This document shows positions 16,755 through 24,933 of a DNA stretch of 44,733 nt, piece after piece. Below the pieces are notes generated by a model. It did not search any database. It was not told the DNA's origin and saw only the letters and a program-made list of their open reading frames with translations. Every line of letters begins with the position of its first letter. Positions within the stretch are counted from its first letter, which is position 1. Where the stretch lies: contig JAVYWZ010000005.1 in assembly GCA_038877255.1 (NCBI GenBank), forward strand, positions 1 to 44,733, in the 5' to 3' direction. Source of the stretch: Candidatus Micrarchaeaceae archaeon. Lineage in GTDB: Archaea > Micrarchaeota > Micrarchaeia > Micrarchaeales > CABMGC01. Made by a program: the position numbers and the translations under genes.

Positions 16755-18152
16755 GTGATGATAGGGCTAGAAGTTCATGTGAGGCTCACCACTGCATCGA
16801 AGCTTTTCTGTTCATGCCCTAATATGGAACCTGAAGAGCCAAACAGCAACGTCTGCCCTATTTGTATGGGTTTTCCAGGGTCAAAGCCCTCGCTCAACGG
16901 CAAAGCGATAGAGCTCGCAGCGATTGCAGCACTTGCCCTCGGCTGCAAAATAAATGAGGAAATAGCATTTTCAAGAAAGGTTTATTTTTATCCAGACCTG
17001 CCAAAGAACTTTCAAATAACGCAATACGAATCTCCAGTGGGCACCGAAGGTACTCTCGTATTAAGTAAAAGCAAAAAGAAAATAGGCATAAGCAGAGTTC
17101 ATGTTGAAGAAGATCCCGCAAGGCTAGTCCATGTAGGCGGAGACATAACAAGCGCCGAATACGCACTTGTAGATTACAACAGATCTGGCATGCCACTGAT
17201 AGAAGTAGTGACAAAGCCTGAGATGAATACACCTGCAGAGGCGCGCGATGCGGTTTACACGCTTGCGATGATGCTAGGTCATCTGGGCGTTTGCGATCCA
17301 AGCGCAGAAAGTGCGATACGTGTAGATGCAAATATATCTCTGAAAGGCGGAAAGCGCGTTGAGATAAAAAACATAACCGGATTTGCAAACGTGGAGAAAG
17401 CGCTGTTGTTCGAAATTGCCAGGCAGAGGCAGCTGCGCGCGCAGGGAATAAGCATAGAGCAAGAAACGCGGCACTTTGATGAGCAGCGAAAGTTGACCGC
17501 TTCTCTCAGGAGCAAGGAGACAGAAGAGGATTACGGTTATATTTTCGAGCCAGACTTGCTGGTTTATGAAATTAATGAGGAATATGTAAACAAGCTGTTG
17601 CCTGTTTTAGAGAAATTGCCTTCTAAGCGCATAGAAAGACTCATAGAAAAATACGCAATAGATGAAAAGATGGCAAAGATCATAGTATATGAAGGCAAGC
17701 CTTTCGCTGATTTCTTTGAAGCATGCGCTGATTCTTTCAGTGATAAGCGTCTTCTTGCACGGTGGTCGACAGGCGATTTGCTGAAGTGCCTTCATTACAA
17801 CAAGATAAGCATAGAGCACTCAAAGGTTACGCCAGAGAATTATGTAGCGTTTTTAAACCTTATAAGCAAAAACATAATAACAGAGCGGCTTGCCAAGGAG
17901 CTGATAAAAGAGTTTGTAGCAAGCGGCAAGAACCCCGAAGAGCTTGCTAATGCAGTTAACCGAAAAGGCGCAGCTGAATTAGAAGAGGTAATAAAACAAG
18001 TAATAAGCGAGAATGGAAAAGCATTTGCTGATTTCAAGAATGGCAATGCAAAAGCGCTGCAATACCTGATAGGCCAGGTACTTGTTAAAACAGGCAACGT
18101 CGCAGATCCAAAAATCATAGCAAAGATGCTTAATGCCCGAGTAGCTCAATAG
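16755..18152 (+). CDS. gatB: Amidotransferase subunit B
   Basis: IGLEVH, KLFCSC, YFYPDLPK, DYNRSGMPLIE, RSKE..DYGYIFEPDL. Confidence 0.97.
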   Translation: MMIGLEVHVRLTTASKLFCSCPNMEPEEPNSNVCPICMGFPGSKPSLNGKAIELAAIAALALGCKINEEIAFSRKVYFYPDLPKNFQITQYESPVGTEGTLVLSKSKKKIGISRVHVEEDPARLVHVGGDITSAEYALVDYNRSGMPLIEVVTKPEMNTPAEARDAVYTLAMMLGHLGVCDPSAESAIRVDANISLKGGKRVEIKNITGFANVEKALLFEIARQRQLRAQGISIEQETRHFDEQRKLTASLRSKETEEDYGYIFEPDLLVYEINEEYVNKLLPVLEKLPSKRIERLIEKYAIDEKMAKIIVYEGKPFADFFEACADSFSDKRLLARWSTGDLLKCLHYNKISIEHSKVTPENYVAFLNLISKNIITERLAKELIKEFVASGKNPEELANAVNRKGAAELEEVIKQVISENGKAFADFKNGNAKALQYLIGQVLVKTGNVADPKIIAKMLNARVAQ

Positions 18153-18207
18153 GTAGAGCGACCGGCTGTTAACCGGTAGGTCGTCAGTTCGAGTCTGACC
18201 TTGGGCG
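18135..18207 (+). tRNA. tRNA-Asn(GTT), intronless, no encoded CCA
   Basis: Cloverleaf with acceptor GCCCGAG/CTTGGGC, D-arm GCTC/GAGC, anticodon arm ACCGG-CTGTTAA-CCGGT and T-arm GTCAG-TTCGAGT-CTGAC. Confidence 0.95.
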
Positions 18208-18268
18208 CTTATGTTTAGCTTAAGTAATCAGTATTAATGACTTTCTATAAATTCATATTGGTGGTTTC

Positions 18269-19582
18269 TTGCTAAGAAGCACGTACATACGCGATGTGCC
18301 CGCAGAACCTGGCAAGGAGGTGACAGTAGGCGGCTGGGTATCACGGCTTAAGGATCTTAAGAGTACAAAGTTTGTGTGGGTTACCGATAAGACTGGAACC
18401 ATACAAGTAACGCTTGCAAAGGACAAGGTCTCTCAGGAAAATTTTTCTTTTTTTGACTCGCTCAATCTGCACGATTTCATTCTAGTAACAGGCATAATCC
18501 CTGAGAAAATACTCGCGAAGAACTTCAAAGAGATAATACCAAAAAAGATGAAGATAGTGGGCAAAGCAGAGAAGCCACTGCCAATTGATGTCAATAATAT
18601 TTTCAAATCAGAGCTCGAGACAAGGTTAGACTGGCGGTCAATAGCGCTGCGCGAGCCTAAGCTTATGCTGGCTCTCAAGGTGCAGTCCAGTCTTGTAGAA
18701 GGCATGGTCAATTATTTAAACAAACATGACTTCACGATGGTGTTCACACCGAGCATAATGGGCGTCGCTTCCGAGGGTGGCTCTGAAGTATTCCCGATAG
18801 TATATTATGATAAAACCACATACCTGAGGCAAGACCCCCAGTTGCACAGGCAGCTCCTTATGGTTGCTGGATTGGACAAGATCTATGAAGTAGGACCTAG
18901 CTGGCGCGCAGAACTCAGCCATACACCGAGGCATCTTTCGGAGCACAGAACCTGCGCTGCAGAAATCTCATTCATAGAAGACGAGCACGATGTAATGCAC
19001 GTAGAGGAAGAGCTGGTTCAGGCAGGGGTTAAGAATGTAATAGAAAAGCACAAGAACGAGCTTGATGATATTGGAATAAGCATAACGGTTCCAAAGGTTC
19101 CTTTCCCTGAACTTGACTTTCCAAATATTTACGATATTCTCAGTGAGCTTGGCAAGTCGCCTCCAAAAGGCAAAGATATAGAGCATGAGTCAGAAATTCT
19201 TCTTGCAAAGTACGTTAAGGAAAAATTCAATAGCGACTTTTTCTTCATAAACAGGTTCCCTTACAAAGTAAAGCCATTCTATGTGATGCGCTACGATGAC
19301 GATCCTGAGTACGCAAGGAGCGTTGATCTTGAATACAAAGGCATGGAGCTGAGCTCAGGCGGGCAGAGAGAGCACAGATACAACAAGATAATAGAGCAAG
19401 CAAAGGAAAAGGGCGTTAGCTTAGAAAGCATAGCGTGGTTCGCAAAGTTCTTCAAGTACGGAGCGCCGCCTCACGGCGGCTTCTCGATAGGCCTGGAAAG
19501 AATAGTTATGCAGCTGCTCAATATGCCCAACATACTGGAAGTGCCTGCATTTCCAAGAACTTCTGAAAGAGTAGTGCCATAG
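18269..19582 (+). CDS. aspS: Aspartyl-tRNA synthetase, archaeal type (probably non-discriminating)
   Basis: OB-fold anticodon domain, SEGGSEVF, YLRQDPQL, WRAELSHTPRHL, GGQR, PPHGGFSIGLER. Non-discriminating status inferred from context. Confidence 0.95.
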   Translation: MLRSTYIRDVPAEPGKEVTVGGWVSRLKDLKSTKFVWVTDKTGTIQVTLAKDKVSQENFSFFDSLNLHDFILVTGIIPEKILAKNFKEIIPKKMKIVGKAEKPLPIDVNNIFKSELETRLDWRSIALREPKLMLALKVQSSLVEGMVNYLNKHDFTMVFTPSIMGVASEGGSEVFPIVYYDKTTYLRQDPQLHRQLLMVAGLDKIYEVGPSWRAELSHTPRHLSEHRTCAAEISFIEDEHDVMHVEEELVQAGVKNVIEKHKNELDDIGISITVPKVPFPELDFPNIYDILSELGKSPPKGKDIEHESEILLAKYVKEKFNSDFFFINRFPYKVKPFYVMRYDDDPEYARSVDLEYKGMELSSGGQREHRYNKIIEQAKEKGVSLESIAWFAKFFKYGAPPHGGFSIGLERIVMQLLNMPNILEVPAFPRTSERVVP

Positions 19583-19746
19583 CAGCATGGCGGACTAGCA
19601 GATTATGCGCTGTCATTTTTAAACATTTTTGAGTAGCTAAATCAGCAATCAACTCCCTGTTTCTTATACAATGTGGCATTGTTATGACAAGCCAACTGCC
19701 GCAATAATTGCGTAACGCAATAATCTGTACGTCCTGGCGCAAAGTG

Positions 19747-19950
19747 CTATTTTTGTCTTTGCGCAAACAATGCAGAACTGTTTTGCTGCATATTGCTGTA
19801 CGTCGTGCGCTGCGCCTCCAAGACCTTCGGCTCGTCTTCCCAGTACCATTTCTCGAGCTTCTGCCGCGCGTACCTGCTTATTACAGGCGCGTGCCAAAGC
19901 ATTATTTTGCACCAAAACTGCACGTTAGGCTTTCTTGGTAACTTTTCCAT
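19747..19950 (-). CDS. Small hypothetical protein (67 aa), third gene of the divergent operon
   Basis: GAGGTG SD before ATG 19950 (MEKLPRKPNVQFWCK...). Overlaps the end of the upstream ORF. Confidence 0.55.
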   Translation of the reverse strand: MEKLPRKPNVQFWCKIMLWHAPVISRYARQKLEKWYWEDEPKVLEAQRTTYSNMQQNSSALFAQRQK

Positions 19951-20215
19951 TCTGTGCACCTCTAAGAGCGTAAACACAAGAAACATGCACGTAATGTGCT
20001 CGGCGCCTGTTGAGATAGTTACTTACCGCCCCTGGCTCCTTTGCCTCAACCATGAAGCCGTAGTCACCTTCTCCGATGCGAACCTCTTTTACACCGCTTA
20101 TTTTCAAGTACTCTAATGCAAGCGAGTATGCATTGGTGTTCTTGCCGCTGGGCTCTATGAAGAACAGGCTGCTCTGTATGGCGCTACCCATATTTCTGTG
20201 CCTTATGTTTTGCAT
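19925..20215 (-). CDS. Stand-alone RAM/Lrp ligand-binding-like domain protein
   Basis: AGGTGG SD. LFFIEP...LALEYLKISGVKEVRIGEGDYGFMVEA resembles the RAM motif (V.EV...G.YD.L.V). No HTH. Confidence 0.65.
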   Translation of the reverse strand: MQNIRHRNMGSAIQSSLFFIEPSGKNTNAYSLALEYLKISGVKEVRIGEGDYGFMVEAKEPGAVSNYLNRRRAHYVHVSCVYALRGAQNGKVTKKA

Positions 20216-20399
20216 TTCCCCACCTTGATATAAGCATTAGCGCAAGCGGTAACAGGAACAAGAGCATTAGCATAAAACGCCGGGGAAGGTCGGCGTGGTG
20301 GAAGTGTGGGTGCCACATTCGCGGGAGTACATTTATATCATGTTGAGTGGGTACGTAAGGAGTATGCTTTGTTTCGTTTCTCATGACACCCACACGCAT
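20184..20399 (-). CDS. Small single-TM membrane protein, first gene of the divergent operon
   Basis: His/Pro-rich N-terminus, hydrophobic FMLMLLFLLPLALMLI, basic tail. TTTATTAA about 22 nt upstream. Alternative start at 20384. Confidence 0.55.
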   Translation of the reverse strand: MRVGVMRNETKHTPYVPTQHDINVLPRMWHPHFHHADLPRRFMLMLLFLLPLALMLISRWGNAKHKAQKYG

Positions 20400-20415
20400 G
20401 ATATTATGCACAAAC

Positions 20416-20570
20416 TTTTATTTAATAAAGATGTAAAACACAACTAAGGCTCAAAGACATCACGACTATAAACATATGTTAATATTTCCAATAATCTAAC
20501 AATAATGTTTAAATTAAACTATAGCAAGCATAATTAATTGAACAATAAAAACAAAAACATTTATAAATAT
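20416..20570. promoter_or_regulatory. Divergent promoter region with candidate operators
   Basis: TATA-like TTTATTAA (minus, 20429-20422) and TTTATAAA (plus, 20560-20567). Palindrome AACATATGTT (20471-20480) and AAC-n6-GTT (20498-20509). Confidence 0.55.
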
Positions 20571-20589
20571 AACCTTAAATACATATAGT

Positions 20590-21963
20590 ATGGCGCAAGA
20601 ACTGCCTGAGCCTGTGGCAAAGACTTTAAGAGAGATAAAGAGAAAAAGGAATACAAAGCATGCAATTTTTGTGGTAAGCACAAAAAGGAACTACTATGTA
20701 TATGAGACTACTACAGCAAAGGTTGGCGACAAAAGAAAGGCGTTCAATCTTTATCTAGGAAAGATATTTCCAAATGGGGAATTTGTAGAGGCAAAAAGAA
20801 GGCGAACGCAATACACGTATGCCTCTAGCATAGACGAAATGCTTGAAAAGAGGCGCATGGTGTATGGCGAGGAACTTGCAAACCCTGACCCAATAGACTT
20901 GGAGATACTTACAATACTAAGCGGCAATGCGCGCGCTCAGACAAAGGAAATCGCAGAACAATTAAATTTCTCTGAGGCGGCAGTGCAGCACAGAATAGAG
21001 AGGCTAGAGCAGAGGTATGGAATAAGGTACACTATTGAAATAGCGCCGAGGCCGTTCGGCTATTTCAGGTATATTGTATTAGTTAAGTTCAACAGAGGCG
21101 CGCCGGAGATACAGGCAGCTAAGAAGGCGCTTGAAGCAGCACCGACTGTTCTCTATGCTGCATTGTTAAAAGGCGATTATGACCTGTTCATCTACATGCT
21201 CGCAGAGAACACCAGACTACTTGAAGACGCAATATACGATCTGCGCTCGTCGCATGCGTTTGCGCCTTACGAGGCTACATGGTATGTTACTTACATTACT
21301 TACAGTTATGGTTATATCCCATTAAGGCCAGCGTTCTTTGGCGAGTTAAGCAAGAAGGTCTGGCACAGAACAAAGGAAACGCCCAGAAAACCAGAGGGTG
21401 CGATCACAGAAAGAGAACTTGAGGTCTTGCAAGCAGTATCAGAAAACAGCAGAAGGCCATTTGCAGAGATAGACAAAGAGCTTGGGTTAGACCCTGGCTC
21501 ATCGCTTTACACTTATTCAAAGCTTTTAGATAAACAAATAATAACGAGAGCAACAATAACAATGGAAAGGCCACCTGTAAAGTACAACATGCTGATAGTA
21601 GCAAAGCAATCAAACATCTTAGAGTTTAACGCACATAGAACAGAGTATCTAGCACATCTTATAGAGCTTACCGGCCGGGTCACTAACAAGTATTTACTGT
21701 CAAGTGATATGGGCGCTCCATATGGTTTGTTGTTTATTGCGCCTTCTTATACAGGAGATCTGTATGAAATAACAGGAGAGCTGGGAAAGTTTGCAAAGGG
21801 CTGCGTGTTTGAAACTGGCGTAATAGTGCAGGAACTTGTAGGGCGATTGGGCTACAGAAGAATAGCAAAAGAAACAACCGCGCAATATAAGACACTACAA
21901 GAGCAGGCAGAATTAGAACAAGTAAATGTCAAAAGGCAAAAGGAAAAAGCAGAGCATATTTAA
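20590..21963 (+). CDS. Large Lrp/AsnC-family regulator: extra N-terminal domain plus two HTH-RAM units
   Basis: DPIDLEILTILSGNAR...EIAEQL..SEAAVQHRIERL (HTH1), LKGDYDLFI (RAM1), ITERELEVLQAVSENSRRPFAEIDKELG (HTH2). Confidence 0.85.
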   Translation: MAQELPEPVAKTLREIKRKRNTKHAIFVVSTKRNYYVYETTTAKVGDKRKAFNLYLGKIFPNGEFVEAKRRRTQYTYASSIDEMLEKRRMVYGEELANPDPIDLEILTILSGNARAQTKEIAEQLNFSEAAVQHRIERLEQRYGIRYTIEIAPRPFGYFRYIVLVKFNRGAPEIQAAKKALEAAPTVLYAALLKGDYDLFIYMLAENTRLLEDAIYDLRSSHAFAPYEATWYVTYITYSYGYIPLRPAFFGELSKKVWHRTKETPRKPEGAITERELEVLQAVSENSRRPFAEIDKELGLDPGSSLYTYSKLLDKQIITRATITMERPPVKYNMLIVAKQSNILEFNAHRTEYLAHLIELTGRVTNKYLLSSDMGAPYGLLFIAPSYTGDLYEITGELGKFAKGCVFETGVIVQELVGRLGYRRIAKETTAQYKTLQEQAELEQVNVKRQKEKAEHI

Positions 21964-22099
21964 CAGCAACAATTCTAACTCACGACGTTCTTTTCAGGTG
22001 TTGCCGTTTCCTCCCATGCGATTCACCTGCATACCCCTAAAACCTTTGTGTTTATAAAGCTTTTGCTGCGACGCTGGAAAGACAGTATACACGTTAAGT
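21766..22099 (+). repeat. Direct repeat copy 1 (regulator 3' end plus convergent micro-ORF and promoter)
   Basis: Aligns without gaps to 22164-22497 at an offset of 398 bp. Confidence 0.95.
21994..22017 (-). CDS. Putative micropeptide MGGNGNT
   Basis: AAAAGC-TTTATAAA (22058-22051), then AGGTGA SD, 5-nt spacer, and ATG GGA GGA AAC GGC AAC ACC TGA. Confidence 0.55.
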   Translation of the reverse strand: MGGNGNT

Positions 22100-22120
22100 A
22101 TTGCACATTTTGTAATACAG

Positions 22121-22361
22121 TACAACGACATAACAGTAGCAAAACAATCGTGGTAACCTTGACGAAATAACAGGAGAGCTGGGAAAGTTTGCAAAGGGCT
22201 GCGCGTTTGAAACTGGCGTAATAGTGCAGGAACTTGTAGGGCGATTGGGCTACAGAAGAATAGTAAAAGAAACAACTACGCAATATAAGACACTACAAGA
22301 GCAGGCAGAATTAGAACAGGTAAATGTCAAAAGGCAAAAGGAAAAAGCAGAGCATATTTAA
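22121..22361 (+). pseudogene. 3' fragment of a paralog of the Lrp/AsnC regulator
   Basis: YNDITVAKQS matches YNMLIVAKQS, then an internal deletion, then GNLDEITGELGKF...KAEHI* matching GDLYEITGELGKF...KAEHI*. Confidence 0.8.
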
Positions 22362-22497
22362 CAGCAGCAATTCTAATTCGCTACACTCTTTTCAGGTCTG
22401 ACCCATTCCTCCCATGCGTTTCACCTGCATACCCCTAAAACCTTTGTGTTTATAAAGCTTTTGCAGCGCTACTGAAAAGGCAGTATACGCGACCAGT
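22164..22497 (+). repeat. Direct repeat copy 2
   Basis: Aligns to 21766-22099. Confidence 0.95.
22392..22415 (-). CDS. Putative micropeptide MGGMGQT
   Basis: Same TATA (22456-22449) and AGGTGA SD, then ATG GGA GGA ATG GGT CAG ACC TGA. Confidence 0.55.
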   Translation of the reverse strand: MGGMGQT

Positions 22498-22566
22498 ACC
22501 AAAGATTAGGCTGCTAACAGATAAAAGTGTGCAAATGGATAAAAGGTTTCAAGCTTATATTAAAGC

Positions 22567-23247
22567 ATGCAGTGTTTTGTCGGAACGTCAGGCTGGCTCT
22601 ATTCTTGGAACAAGGAAGGCACGCTTGACTGGTACATTACTAACAGCGGACTCAACGCCATAGAGCTAAATGCCAGCTTCTATAGGTTTCCTTTTCCAAA
22701 TCAGGTTGTGGGCTGGAGCCGCAAAGGCGTTTCACTTGCATGGGTTATAAAGGCAAACCGGCTTATAACGCACGTGCACATGCTCAACGAAAAGGCAGAG
22801 TTGCTTTATGCGCGTTTTATCGAGTTGTTTAAGCCTCTCGATGAGCACATTGCACTTTACCTTTTCCAAATGCCTCCTAATTTCACTTCTAACATGCAGG
22901 AAAGGCTTGTAAAATTTGCAAAGAAATTCAACGCGGAGAAAATTGCGTTTGAATTTAGGCATGAAAGCTGGTATTCTTTTGATTTCAAAAGCCTTGATTT
23001 TAGCGGTGCAATAGTTTCGCCTGATTCGCCTGAAATAAACAGAAAGGTTTTCGTAAAAAATGGCATTGCATACTTACGCTTTCATGGAAGGCGTTCGTGG
23101 TACTCTTACAACTACAGCAGAAAGGAGCTTGAAGAAATGGCTGCGAAAGCAAAAGCACTCAGGCCTAAGAAAACATATGCCTTTTTCAATAACGACCATG
23201 ATATGCTTAATAATGCGCAAGAGTTCATGCGCCTTCTTGGCGATTGA
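22567..23247 (+). CDS. DUF72 (YecE/UPF0759) family protein
   Basis: VGTSGW, IELNASFYRFP, LFQMPP, AFEFRHESW, YLRFHG, YNYS, FFNN. Confidence 0.93.
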   Translation: MQCFVGTSGWLYSWNKEGTLDWYITNSGLNAIELNASFYRFPFPNQVVGWSRKGVSLAWVIKANRLITHVHMLNEKAELLYARFIELFKPLDEHIALYLFQMPPNFTSNMQERLVKFAKKFNAEKIAFEFRHESWYSFDFKSLDFSGAIVSPDSPEINRKVFVKNGIAYLRFHGRRSWYSYNYSRKELEEMAAKAKALRPKKTYAFFNNDHDMLNNAQEFMRLLGD

Positions 23248-24147
23248 TTGGAAGCCGCTGTAAGCGTTAAACACGTTACCAAGACGTTCGGCAGCGTGAA
23301 AGCAGTTTCAGGCGTCTCTCTGAGCGTCAGAAAGGGTAGCACGCTTTTGCTCATAGGGCCCAACGGCGCAGGCAAGAGCACGCTTGAAAGGCTTATTGCA
23401 GGGCTTTACAAGCCTACTTCAGGCAGCGTGCTTGTCCTAGGCGAAGACCCGTTTGCTAACGATCGGTTGCGCGCCTCGCTTGGATTTGTGGGCGAAAACT
23501 ACTCGCTTTATGACAAGCTTACAGTTATAGACAACATACGTTTCTTCTCAGGCATGTACGGCATAGGCTTGGAAGACGCGAGGAAGGCGGCGCGCGAGCT
23601 GCTTTACGAGCTTGGCGCAGGCGAGTTTCTTGAACGGCGCGTTGGCGAGCTCAGCCGCGGTACAAAGCAGAAGGTTGCGATATGCAGGTCTTTGATAGCT
23701 GACCCAAGCATAATGGTGCTTGACGAGCCAACTGCTTTTCTTGACCCTAGCAGCGCAGAGTCGCTTCGTGAGCTCTTATACAAAGCAAACAAGAAAGGCA
23801 AAACGATAGTGTATGCTACGCAGAGGCTTGACGAGTTGAGCAGGCTTAACGGAGAAATAGCACTTCTCAACAATGGCATGCTGGTTGCAAAAGGGAGCCT
23901 TGCGCAGGTGATGCGCGAGATAAAAGGCGTTGAAGTTGAGGTTGTGCTGTCGAGAAAACCAAGCACGTCTGATTCGGCGCGGCTAATGAAGCTAGGAGCA
24001 AAGATCTTCGGCAGGCGCCTTCTTTTCAGAATAAAGAACCTTTCAGAGCTGCCTGAAATATCAGAAAGCATAGGCTCTATGCATATTGGCGTGCTCACAA
24101 TAACCTATGTCGATTACAACCTGCAGGCCAGGTGCACAGGCGACTGA
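23248..24147 (+). CDS. ABC exporter ATP-binding protein
   Basis: GPNGAGKST, LSRGTKQK, VLDEPT. Confidence 0.93.
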   Translation: MEAAVSVKHVTKTFGSVKAVSGVSLSVRKGSTLLLIGPNGAGKSTLERLIAGLYKPTSGSVLVLGEDPFANDRLRASLGFVGENYSLYDKLTVIDNIRFFSGMYGIGLEDARKAARELLYELGAGEFLERRVGELSRGTKQKVAICRSLIADPSIMVLDEPTAFLDPSSAESLRELLYKANKKGKTIVYATQRLDELSRLNGEIALLNNGMLVAKGSLAQVMREIKGVEVEVVLSRKPSTSDSARLMKLGAKIFGRRLLFRIKNLSELPEISESIGSMHIGVLTITYVDYNLQARCTGD

Positions 24148-24933
24148 ATGCATGCACAACGCGTACTTTTGCTCGCTGAGAAGGACCTGAGGGAAGCTTT
24201 CAGCAGCATAGAGATTTATGGGCCAATGCTCGGAATACCCCTTTTCTTCGCCTTTCTTCTGCCTGCGTTTACTGTTTATGTATCGCAGCACGCTGGCGTG
24301 CAGATAGCAGAGCGCATACTCGGACCTGTCGCGGTATCGCAGGCGCCCCAGATAAACAAACTTGCTTTCATAGAGTACTTCACAGAGAACGTACTTGGAC
24401 CAATATTCATGATAATGCCTATAATAACTGCTTCTGTGCTTGCAGCAGACAGCTTCGCAGGTGAGAAAGAGCGCAAAACCTCAGAGGCACTGCTTTCTTC
24501 TCCGATCTCAAACGCAGAGCTTTTCATGGGCAAGATCCTAGCTTCGGCATTACCCGCGTTTCTCATAACGCTTTCCGTGTTCCTTATATACGCCGGCATA
24601 ATAAACTATTTCACCGTTGGCGAATACGGAGTTAGCGTGTTTCCCAATGCCACATGGTACCTTATGCTTGCGAACTCGCCGTTGCTGATACTTGCTACCA
24701 TAGGGCTTGTCGTGCTTGTTTCTTCCAAGGTAAAAGGAATAAAGGAAGCGCAGCAGGTCAGTGCGCTCCTTGCCTTGCCCATATTCCTTATGCCGTTCGT
24801 AGCCATATTCAACGTCTTCTCTTTCTCAACTGCGTTCTTTGCGTATTTGCTTGCATTCCTCTTTGCCGCTGCGCTGCTTATACTTTTCATAGGAATAAGG
24901 AGCTTTAGCAGAGAGAGCATGATAAGCACATAA
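24148..24933 (+). CDS. ABC-2 type permease
   Basis: ADSFAGEKERKTSEALLSSP, GKILAS, about 6 TMs. Confidence 0.9.
   Translation: MHAQRVLLLAEKDLREAFSSIEIYGPMLGIPLFFAFLLPAFTVYVSQHAGVQIAERILGPVAVSQAPQINKLAFIEYFTENVLGPIFMIMPIITASVLAADSFAGEKERKTSEALLSSPISNAELFMGKILASALPAFLITLSVFLIYAGIINYFTVGEYGVSVFPNATWYLMLANSPLLILATIGLVVLVSSKVKGIKEAQQVSALLALPIFLMPFVAIFNVFSFSTAFFAYLLAFLFAAALLILFIGIRSFSRESMIST

Follow-up and report, generated by a model that had tools for sequence, protein, structure and literature searches.

What is a large regulator gene doing in a reduced archaeal genome with genes of only seven codons at its 3' end? The question is raised by a block at positions 19747-22497 of a 44,733-nucleotide (nt) stretch of DNA, called the window below, which is contig C5 (JAVYWZ010000005.1) of the 713-kb, 30-contig, 92.4% complete genome of a Candidatus Micrarchaeaceae archaeon. 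The block holds a gene for a protein with two fused Lrp/AsnC-type units, three overlapping small open reading frames (ORFs) that diverge from it, and two minute glycine-rich genes, termed mini-genes here, that converge on it. Comparison with related genomes indicates that the block is one of several copies of a regulatory cassette specific to a single order of Micrarchaeota. The mini-genes are tentatively read as a translation-coupled antisense feedback device acting on the regulator. This reading is given somewhat less than an even chance and is favoured over that of a peptide ligand or signal.

Glycine-rich mini-genes convergent with the regulator

Both mini-genes of the window (Table 1) have the same order of elements: TTTATAAA, about 22 nt, the Shine-Dalgarno (SD) sequence AGGTG(A), 5-6 nt, ATG GGA GGA, four further codons and TGA. 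Minus-strand ORFs of 36 and 93 residues running over them were rejected as artefacts of upstream in-frame starts. The genome contains 113 SD-led ORFs of 4-15 codons, only six of which are glycine-rich. All six have seven codons and lie just 3' of a regulator copy (two on C5, one on C2, two on C4 and one on C10, the last three being other contigs of this genome). A seventh glycine-rich mini-ORF, with the weaker SD AGGTAA, is present at C2:29479, and the seven-codon length is kept in 7/7 copies. The placement of the mini-genes next to regulator copies is beyond chance.

The arrangement was followed through 19 loci from related genomes, 33 from GTDB species genomes and the two complete modules of the genome itself. 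The regulator reaches its C-terminus in 46 loci, of which 44 remain after copies at least 95% identical are merged. A convergent glycine-rich ORF of 4-16 codons is found within 200 nt of the regulator stop codon at 30 of the 46 loci, and on the same strand at none (0/46). With a length limit of 4-22 codons, the count is 31 of the 44 non-redundant loci, which bears out the claim of an earlier note on this DNA that convergent micro-ORFs accompany the regulator. For SD-led ORFs of any composition (4-25 codons) within the same distance, the figures are 32/44 convergent and 0/44 on the same strand. The 1.5 kb downstream of 45 loci contain 46 convergent copies of SD-led glycine-rich ORFs, distributed over 30 loci; the same scan gave none on the same strand and none in 248,352 nt taken from regulator bodies and the DNA upstream of them. 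The distance between the regulator stop and the end of the nearest copy is 2-77 nt, and the transcripts of the two genes must therefore overlap. In 26 of the 38 listed units the mini-ORF ATG is preceded, at 36-53 nt, by a TATA-like octamer. Runs of at least five T residues follow the mini-ORF stop within 100 nt at 19 of 29 loci, compared with 45 of 145 control windows. Two or more mini-gene copies are present at 9 of the 45 loci, with up to six in locus L036, and polycistronic mini-ORF arrays with periods of 40-55 nt occur in L017 (at least 4-7 mini-ORFs) and L041 (three). The same arrangement is found in the cultured Ca. Micrarchaeum sp. A_DKE (L031), where the mini-peptide is MGGAGGH.

The mini-ORFs are uniform in length and composition: 37 of the 44 distinct ones have 7-9 codons, and glycine accounts for 186 of their 313 non-initiator residues, the others being mostly S, A, D and N. 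The codon GGA is used for 128 of the 186 glycines (69%), equally at codons 2-3 and later. Its share is 19% in 327 long ORFs of the genome, with a maximum of 45% for any one gene, and 27% in the regulators next to the mini-genes. The genome encodes a single tRNA-Gly(UCC) and a single tRNA-Gly(GCC). Between the two types into which the modules of this genome have diverged, the regulators of which are 48% identical, the mini-gene promoter and leader are 79% identical and mini-ORF codons 1-3 are 89% identical; the corresponding values are 29% for codons 4-7 and 18% for the 3' flank. Copies within one locus usually encode different peptides (MGGNGNT/MGGMGQT, MGGCGGF/MGGCVGT, MGGSDGQ/MGGGGGQ). These comparisons point to constraint on the mini-ORF start region, its length and the GGA-rich RNA rather than on the peptide core.

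Several genera (loci L012, L031, L033, L041, L044, L045, L047, L022, L042, L050 and L052) have a conserved leader motif, (T/C)TCCATTTTG, in the interval from the TATA box to the SD; the mini-gene leader of the window genus carries ACAAAGGTTTTAGGGGTAT instead. Both motifs are candidate operators or RNA elements.

The double-Lrp regulator and its RAM partner

The regulator was modelled with AlphaFold2 from an alignment of its relatives (pLDDT 90.9, pTM 0.78). The predicted chain comprises an N-terminal domain, a long helix, two units each made of a helix-turn-helix (HTH) and a RAM domain, a conserved linker between the units, and a C-terminal helix (Table 1). Residues 100-140 match the Pfam HTH_AsnC-type family PF13404 with 55.8 bits (cut-off 27), as do 30 of the 31 aligned relatives. 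The RAM domain is weak by sequence, PF01037 (AsnC_trans_reg) scoring 17 bits at residues 163-218 (cut-off 25) and reaching E <= 0.01 in 8 of the 31 relatives. Alignment of unit 1 with unit 2 by hhalign (E 2.5e-5, 86 columns) reveals an internal duplication. In a profile search of the PDB, positions 100-216 match FL11 at E 2.6e-13, and the match at positions 100-240 spans the HTH and RAM domains of ST1022 and FL11. The top Foldseek match is NirDL (4ch7; E 6.1e-12, 356 columns, 15% identity, TMt 0.65), followed at TMt 0.66-0.77 by single-unit feast/famine regulatory proteins (FFRPs) such as FL11, LrpA and Rv3291c, those of the FL11 type reaching 0.7 and above. The model, the Foldseek matches and the comparison of the two units agree with the double-Lrp regulator that the earlier note had proposed, and the protein is, as modelled, a single-chain double Lrp/AsnC (FFRP) fold. 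No other one-chain tandem of two Lrp-like units has been solved; in contrast to NirDL, the present protein is extended by about 95 residues at its N-terminus and has a canonical HTH_AsnC signature and multiple gene copies.

The N-terminal region, residues 1-95 (20590-20880), contains the conserved pattern YYVYE...LYLGKI..DG.F. In an Atlas structure search it resembled the N-termini of IS4/DDE transposases at TM 0.54-0.57, which is a lead only, and it may be a domesticated transposase DNA-binding domain; every match of an ESM Atlas feature search with this region was below 0.9. A defence system was considered and rejected, as PADLOC gave only HTH-level matches for the regulator (the Csa3/CasR/CARF HTH region) and did not match the small ORFs. 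Regulator residues of about 105-335 are also matched, at 23-31% identity, by a second family of shorter proteins (about 340-390 residues; C15:6903-7964, C17:5225-5845). Many matches of 336-390 residues belong to it, and most genomes of the order have it; it may represent a further fused Lrp-like architecture.

The divergent orf96 was modelled with a pLDDT of 84 and the strand and helix order beta-alpha-beta-beta-alpha-beta. Its top Foldseek rows are PHS023 (2cvi, E 2.4e-3), DM1 (2e1a, E 4.7e-3), TTHA0845 and Lrp RAM domains, all with weak E-values (2e-3 to 1e-2); PHS023 and DM1 are stand-alone RAM proteins. A search with the orf96 family profile gave matches to DM1 (E 2.7e-3) and to the RAM portion of FL11 (E 2e-4). 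PF01037 is found on 4 of 27 database relatives, while orf96 itself has no Pfam match. By its predicted fold, orf96 is a stand-alone RAM-domain protein of the DM1 type that has no DNA-binding domain. An iterative search of all locus ORFs found relatives at 23 of the 46 regulator loci, always on the opposite strand and 190-860 nt from the regulator start; in the non-redundant set, a divergent relative is present at 22 of the 40 loci having at least 900 nt of upstream DNA. Both the fold and this co-occurrence uphold the proposal that a stand-alone RAM-like ORF belongs with the regulator. A complex prediction for regulator residues 97-457 with orf96, run without controls, gave a median score of 0.29 against a mark of 0.32, a value that speaks neither for nor against an assembly of the two.

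Stand-alone RAM proteins and the FL11-DM1 hetero-octamer, with amino-acid effectors, are reported in PMC2995911, and a 2010 review calls the physiological role of such RAM proteins unclear. The present module resembles the FL11/DM1 pair of Pyrococcus horikoshii in having an AsnC-type winged HTH followed by a beta-alpha-beta-beta-alpha-beta RAM domain and, in the same genome, a separate RAM-only protein of about 75-95 residues. FL11 is also the best sequence-profile match of both regulator unit 1 and orf96. Unlike in that pair, two HTH-RAM units with an N-terminal beta domain and a conserved linker share one 450-residue chain, the RAM-only partner occupies a fixed divergent position, there is no adjacent metabolic target, and a convergent mini-ORF gene is present. 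Hetero-oligomer formation and ligand binding, reported for FL11-DM1, are predicted here by analogy.

The distribution of the regulator was examined in the present genome and in 150 others sampled evenly from the phylum, at a threshold of E <= 1e-30. Matches were obtained in 53 of the 151 genomes, all within two families of one order (16/24 genomes of family f1 and 36/46 of family f3), and none in 80 genomes of 18 other families of the phylum. There are 1-11 matches per genome, which are not equal to copy numbers. Full-length frames are kept at 30-55% identity across the two families, in genomes of 0.6-1.2 Mb. A survey of 25 named loci, in which 68 of the 130 listed flanking ORFs were scanned, found unrelated housekeeping genes that differ from locus to locus and no recurring amino-acid pathway or metabolic operon. 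The earlier note's view of a conserved, self-contained module without a metabolic target is therefore sustained: the module recurs within the genome and across the order, its flanks vary, and orf96 and the micro-ORFs are conserved with the regulator and are not placed among amino-acid genes.

Possible roles of the mini-genes

In the favoured reading the module has three conserved parts. The first is a single-chain pseudo-dimer of the Lrp/AsnC type with a beta domain added at its N-terminus; it would be a DNA-binding protein, and its mRNA is probably leaderless. The second, the divergent stand-alone RAM protein, would join the RAM core of the regulator and alter its assembly or ligand response, in analogy to FL11-DM1. 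The third consists of one or more convergent mini-genes, each with its own TATA box, an SD and a GGA-rich ORF of 7-9 codons near the regulator stop. The mini-gene transcript and the regulator mRNA would overlap tail to tail, giving mutual interference by convergent transcription as well as antisense pairing, and translation of the mini-ORF would make the fate of the antisense RNA depend on the state of the ribosomes or of Gly-tRNA. GGA, a minor glycine codon, would be read by tRNA-Gly(UCC), and the sequence GGAGGA in addition resembles an SD. The regulator would probably bind the strongly conserved promoter and leader of the mini-genes and its own divergent promoter, and tandem duplication would add mini-gene copies. 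The amount of regulator would thereby come under feast/famine feedback. We infer a short translated antisense transcript because the start region is conserved, the length fixed, GGA preferred and the core variable, and because T runs follow the ORF.

Several observations weigh against the antisense device. About 13 of the 44 loci have no glycine-rich mini-ORF, and some of these have other short convergent ORFs, for example of 18-21 codons or encoding MPGASA. The arrays of L017 and L041 and the duplications of the mini-gene alone in L018 and L020 fit selection for more peptide better. With few exceptions the mini-ORF residues are small or polar (G, S, A, D, N), and there is no R, W or I among the 313, a restriction which could be a peptide-level constraint. 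We know of no demonstration of leader-peptide or translation-coupled attenuation in archaea. No operator motif was found in the two divergent spacers, which have only a 10-mer in common; the mini-gene core and the divergent spacers do not share a 9-mer. The A_DKE locus is partly present in assembled contigs of twelve RNA-library runs from five studies, and contigs of runs X1 and X2 cover the L031 mini-gene region, but they give neither strand nor ends nor levels, and DNA carry-over is possible. Differences in depth from contig to contig, and gaps of coverage in X2-X4, were left out of account.

The most serious alternative, although on balance unlikely, is that the glycine-rich peptide of 7-9 residues is a trans-acting effector that the tandem Lrp protein, with or without the RAM partner, binds in its RAM pockets. 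It would act inside the cell or after export and re-uptake, in the manner of Gram-positive regulator-peptide pairs, residues 4-7 would set its specificity, and duplicates would add variants. A peptide product would account for the promoter and SD of every mini-gene, the amplified copies, including polycistronic arrays, the retention of the MGG N-terminus with a varying core, the differing peptides from two copies of one locus, and the limitation to small or polar residues. The units are also inherited and recombined with the RAM2 half of the regulator, with swaps between C2 and C4; the regulator fragments show dN/dS of 0.12-0.36, and according to PMC2995911 the known Lrp effectors all bind in the RAM domain. 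On the other hand, a peptide product has no need of the GGA bias (69% versus 19-27%), codons 4-7 diverge like unconstrained DNA (29% identity), glycine-rich heptapeptides carry little information for specific recognition, and a diffusible ligand does not require strict convergent abutment. No signal peptide, processing site, linked exporter or Opp-type importer was found, the ABC pair next to the block recurring at 1 of 25 other loci. More specifically, it is doubtful that the peptides are made and serve as cognate effectors of the tandem Lrp protein and its RAM partner, which would amount to ribosomal-peptide signalling in Archaea based on RAM rather than TPR domains. Cassettes of receptor tail and peptide would in that case be swapped and duplicated for new specificities, possibly for kin or host sensing by episymbionts. 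The cell-density, kin or host sensing that the earlier note had suggested is not supported: there is no export signal, and GGA-rich coding with a free core fits a role in RNA or translation at least equally well.

It is improbable that the mini-genes are instead the regulated output, their peptides having an unrelated role in metal binding, the envelope or host interaction and their convergent position merely securing co-inheritance. Amplified copies, strong promoters and the lack of another conserved target gene near the regulator would agree with this, but no modifying enzyme, exporter or acceptor gene co-occurs, the peptide core varies even within one genome, and both the GGA bias and the 2-77-nt abutment would be left unexplained. 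That the doubled Lrp protein is no transcription factor at all and is an enzyme or non-DNA-binding scaffold like NirDL or AhbAB, perhaps acting on the mini-peptide, is very improbable. NirDL is its best full-length structural match, and weak NirDL-like_HTH and AhbA/AhbB profile matches exist. The identity to NirDL is nevertheless low, unit 1 matches DNA-binding FFRPs at E 1e-13, the HTH_AsnC-type match is far above its cut-off, and one to eleven paralogues per genome would be odd for a pathway enzyme. ALAD (PF00490) and porphobilinogen deaminase (PF01379) gave no match in the genome, which is 92.4% complete, the controls being positive in 11 of 14 genomes, and a siroheme decarboxylase role is therefore unlikely. 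Hardly more credible is a decaying repeat family without present function, in which the modules would be debris of a spreading element and the micro-ORFs silent. The multiple copies, the frameshifted C10 remnant, the 3' fragments, the many homologues at contig ends and the transposase-like N-terminus (again, a lead only) are what such a family would leave. The full-length frames are, however, maintained at 30-55% identity in genomes of 0.6-1.2 Mb, the promoter, SD, ATG and stop of the mini-ORFs are kept where the surrounding sequence is unalignable, and neither the module nor the DNA beside it contains a catalytic domain of a transposase or integrase.

Known systems with very short genes share parts of this arrangement. 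The RRNPP systems of Firmicutes (Rgg-SHP, PlcR-PapR, ComR-ComS and the phage pair AimR-AimP) have a tiny ORF beside the gene of a receptor-regulator, sometimes convergent with it, a variable peptide core and paralogous receptor families. Their receptors are TPR proteins, and their peptides, which arise from precursors of 20-45 residues carrying export and processing signals, depend on Opp-type import. The module, in contrast, has an Lrp-fold receptor and 7-9 mostly-glycine codons that leave no room for a signal or pro-region, and belongs to an archaeal lineage. Bacterial leader-peptide attenuators and regulatory mini-ORFs (his, trp, pheL; the erm and cat leaders) have an SD-led, very short ORF enriched in one minor codon. 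Their peptide is otherwise free in sequence, and the ORF serves to sense translation and not to make a product. The enrichment of a minor codon, here GGA, is thus met with in the mini-ORFs as well. Leader ORFs lie upstream and co-sense of the genes they regulate, whereas only the antisense of the regulator 3' end is downstream of the mini-ORF; no terminator/antiterminator fold, for which no search was made, came to light. The microcin C gene mccA, a stand-alone gene of seven codons with promoter and SD, demonstrates that such genes can be real. Unlike at the microcin C locus, no MccB-type adenylyltransferase, immunity or export genes are nearby, and none of the mini-ORFs listed ends in Asn; aspS as a neighbour of the module is probably a coincidence of synteny.

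The fused double Lrp protein, the dedicated stand-alone RAM partner and the promoter-equipped seven-codon genes were not found described together. In the literature consulted, including passages of PMC5498576 and PMC8975820, neither this regulator architecture nor the mini-ORFs are described, and the module seems to be an undescribed form of Lrp/FFRP regulation. Micrarchaeota are host-dependent, with genomes of 0.6-1.2 Mb and very few regulators, yet one order keeps this 450-residue protein. The seven-codon mini-genes are among the smallest conserved genes in any genome, and they form a conserved gene class that standard gene callers missed here. A translation-coupled antisense sensor, if confirmed, would be an archaeal counterpart of leader-peptide control; a peptide ligand would make peptide signalling in Archaea a categorically new phenomenon.

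Gene order, duplication and decay of the module

Table 1. Features of the block, its flanks and the paralogous modules of the genome (window positions unless residues or another contig are named).
Feature	Position	Strand	Remarks
Asp-type class II tRNA synthetase gene (aspS)	18269-19582		flanks the module
orf79 (Trp-rich)	19747-19986	minus	79 residues; 67-residue form from ATG at 19950
orf96 (stand-alone RAM)	19925-20215	minus	96 residues; AGGTGG upstream
orf75 (His/Pro-rich, one hydrophobic stretch)	20184-20411	minus	75 residues; GTG start, no SD
Divergent spacer	20412-20589		20.2% G+C, against 42.7% over the whole block 19747-22497
CTTTTATTTA	20415-20424		common to this spacer and the C2 module spacer; putative promoter role
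TTTATAAATA	20560-20569		30 nt before the regulator ATG; putative promoter element
Tandem Lrp regulator ORF	20590-21963	plus	457 residues
Regulator N-terminal beta domain	residues 1-67		helix plus beta-sheet, AlphaFold2 model
Regulator long helix	residues 81-97		AlphaFold2 model
Regulator HTH1	residues 101-143		AlphaFold2 model
Regulator RAM1	residues 145-241		beta-alpha-beta-beta-alpha-beta, AlphaFold2 model
Regulator linker KVWHRTKETPRK			conserved; between unit 1 and unit 2
Regulator HTH2	residues 274-314		AlphaFold2 model
Regulator RAM2	residues 318-417		beta-alpha-beta-beta-alpha-beta, AlphaFold2 model
Regulator C-terminal helix	residues 431-456		AlphaFold2 model
Direct repeat, 328 nt	21766-22093 and 22164-22491		92.7% identical; period 398
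Mini-gene a ORF	21994-22017	minus	MGGNGNT, stop; stop 30 nt from regulator stop
Mini-gene a SD AGGTG	22024-22028	minus	
Mini-gene a TATA box TTTATAAA	22051-22058	minus	
Duplicated regulator 3' fragment	22149-22361	plus	residues ~388-457, 91-93% identical
Mini-gene b ORF	22392-22415	minus	MGGMGQT, stop
Mini-gene b SD AGGTG	22422-22426	minus	
Mini-gene b TATA box TTTATAAA	22449-22456	minus	
DUF72 gene	22567-23247		other flank of the module
C2 full module			orf79-like, orf96-like (42% identical), regulator (48-49%), mini-gene, 3' fragment, mini-gene
C4 module	C4:44684-45354		contig ends inside this regulator copy; then mini-gene, fragment, mini-gene
C10 module			frameshifted regulator remnant and mini-gene; broken orf79 copy elsewhere on the contig

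The second mini-gene of the window arose by a 398-nt tandem duplication that also copied the last ~70 codons of the regulator. Repeat copy 1 consists of the last ~66 regulator codons, the stop, the 30-nt gap and mini-gene a, ending about 130 nt past the stop. A remnant of regulator codons ~330-341 at 22116-22149 is followed by an internal deletion and then by the 3' fragment, which differs from the parent gene by 3 synonymous and 4 non-synonymous changes and is probably not expressed by itself. Of the micropeptide cassettes described in the earlier note, the two mini-genes stand; the second is the product of this duplication, with a regulator 3' fragment dragged along, rather than a separate cassette. 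A diversity-generating retroelement was rejected, as the two copies do not differ specifically at adenines and the repeat crosses the stop codon into the mini-gene. An integration or att site was also rejected, as only 98 nt lie between the copies and the short 2-77-nt gap forces copying of the gene end.

Duplications of the regulator 3' end together with the mini-gene occur also in L033 (95 codons, 86% identical), L045 (110 codons, 69%) and L052 (207 nt, 97%), and the mini-gene alone is repeated in L017, L018, L020, L036 and L041. The 3' regulator fragments are read as hitch-hikers, the retained feature being the extra mini-gene; with so short a gap, almost every tandem duplication that includes the mini-gene has to begin within the regulator gene, and it leaves that gene intact beside a 3' fragment. 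Fragments and parent genes show dN/dS of 0.12-0.36, and these low values are attributed to gene conversion from functional copies because the fragments have neither the first strand and helix of the RAM domain nor an SD.

The genome contains at least three modules and one decayed one. The C2 and C4 units are mosaic, the C4 unit beside the full gene resembling the distal unit of C2 and vice versa. At C10:4388-4925 the regulator remnant has frameshifts and a TAG codon beside an intact mini-gene (MGGLSNA), and at C10:20751-20963 a broken orf79 copy is next to ORFs that resemble ribosomal-protein genes. Both gain and loss of modules occur. Regulator copies are often found at contig ends, such repeats breaking assemblies, and the copy numbers in metagenome-assembled genomes are probably underestimates.

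The earlier note placed the three small minus-strand ORFs in one operon. Overlapping ORFs are indeed present, with the clear SDs it had described on the 96-residue ORF (AGGTGG) and the 67-residue form of orf79 (GAGGTG, 6 nt upstream of ATG 19950), but an operon is not established, and orf75 has no homologue in the genome itself, the 46 related loci or the family libraries. As a gene, orf75 is unsupported, and its region may be part of the orf96 5' leader; the His/Pro-rich membrane protein, not being conserved at all, drops out as a conserved part of the module. The Trp-rich ORF, for which the same status had been proposed, is confined to the genus: homologues of orf79 were found only in C2 (26794-27039), in a frameshifted remnant at C10:20757-20962 and in the same-genus loci L011/L030 and L015, which come from two genomes. 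It has no Pfam, NCBIfam or PADLOC match, and its 67-residue form has no usable match in the ESM Atlas; judged from this distribution, it is a genus-specific accessory gene of the module. A stretch of 139 nt at 19825-19963, which takes in the orf96 end and two thirds of orf79 from its start, is 98.6% identical to C2:26860-26998, while the neighbouring proteins are only 42-48% identical, which suggests either a recent gene conversion or an unrecognised DNA or RNA element.

The elements of the divergent spacer have putative promoter roles, and the regulator mRNA is probably leaderless because TTTATAAATA is so close to the ATG. Rfam and ARAGORN found no RNA family or tRNA in 19400-22700 at E <= 1; their sole match in the window is tRNA-Asn at 18135-18208. 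Beyond the DUF72 gene lie an ABC ATPase and an ABC-2 permease (23248-24933). As the earlier note had stated, nothing links this exporter to the module, such a pair being present at 1 of the 25 other loci scanned.

On the opposite side, within 16755-19582, gatB (ending at 18152), tRNA-Asn(GTT), which overlaps the gatB end, and aspS are consecutive, and genes of the tRNA-dependent Asn-tRNA route seem to be clustered. The order of aspS followed by the module is also found in L031 and L033, a conserved synteny. Aminoacyl-tRNA synthetase genes flank the module in 7 of the 25 loci (L031, L032, L033, L045, L054, L055 and L057) as well as in the window, and an ORF next to the C10 remnant (C10:5051-6118) has, by eye only, the look of a Tyr/Trp synthetase of class I; these neighbours may be due to chance and shared synteny. 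In the A_DKE-like population, a contig of RNA-library run X1 joins position 4436 of L031 back to 4060, a 377-nt tandem form in which the regulator 3' end and the mini-gene are duplicated.

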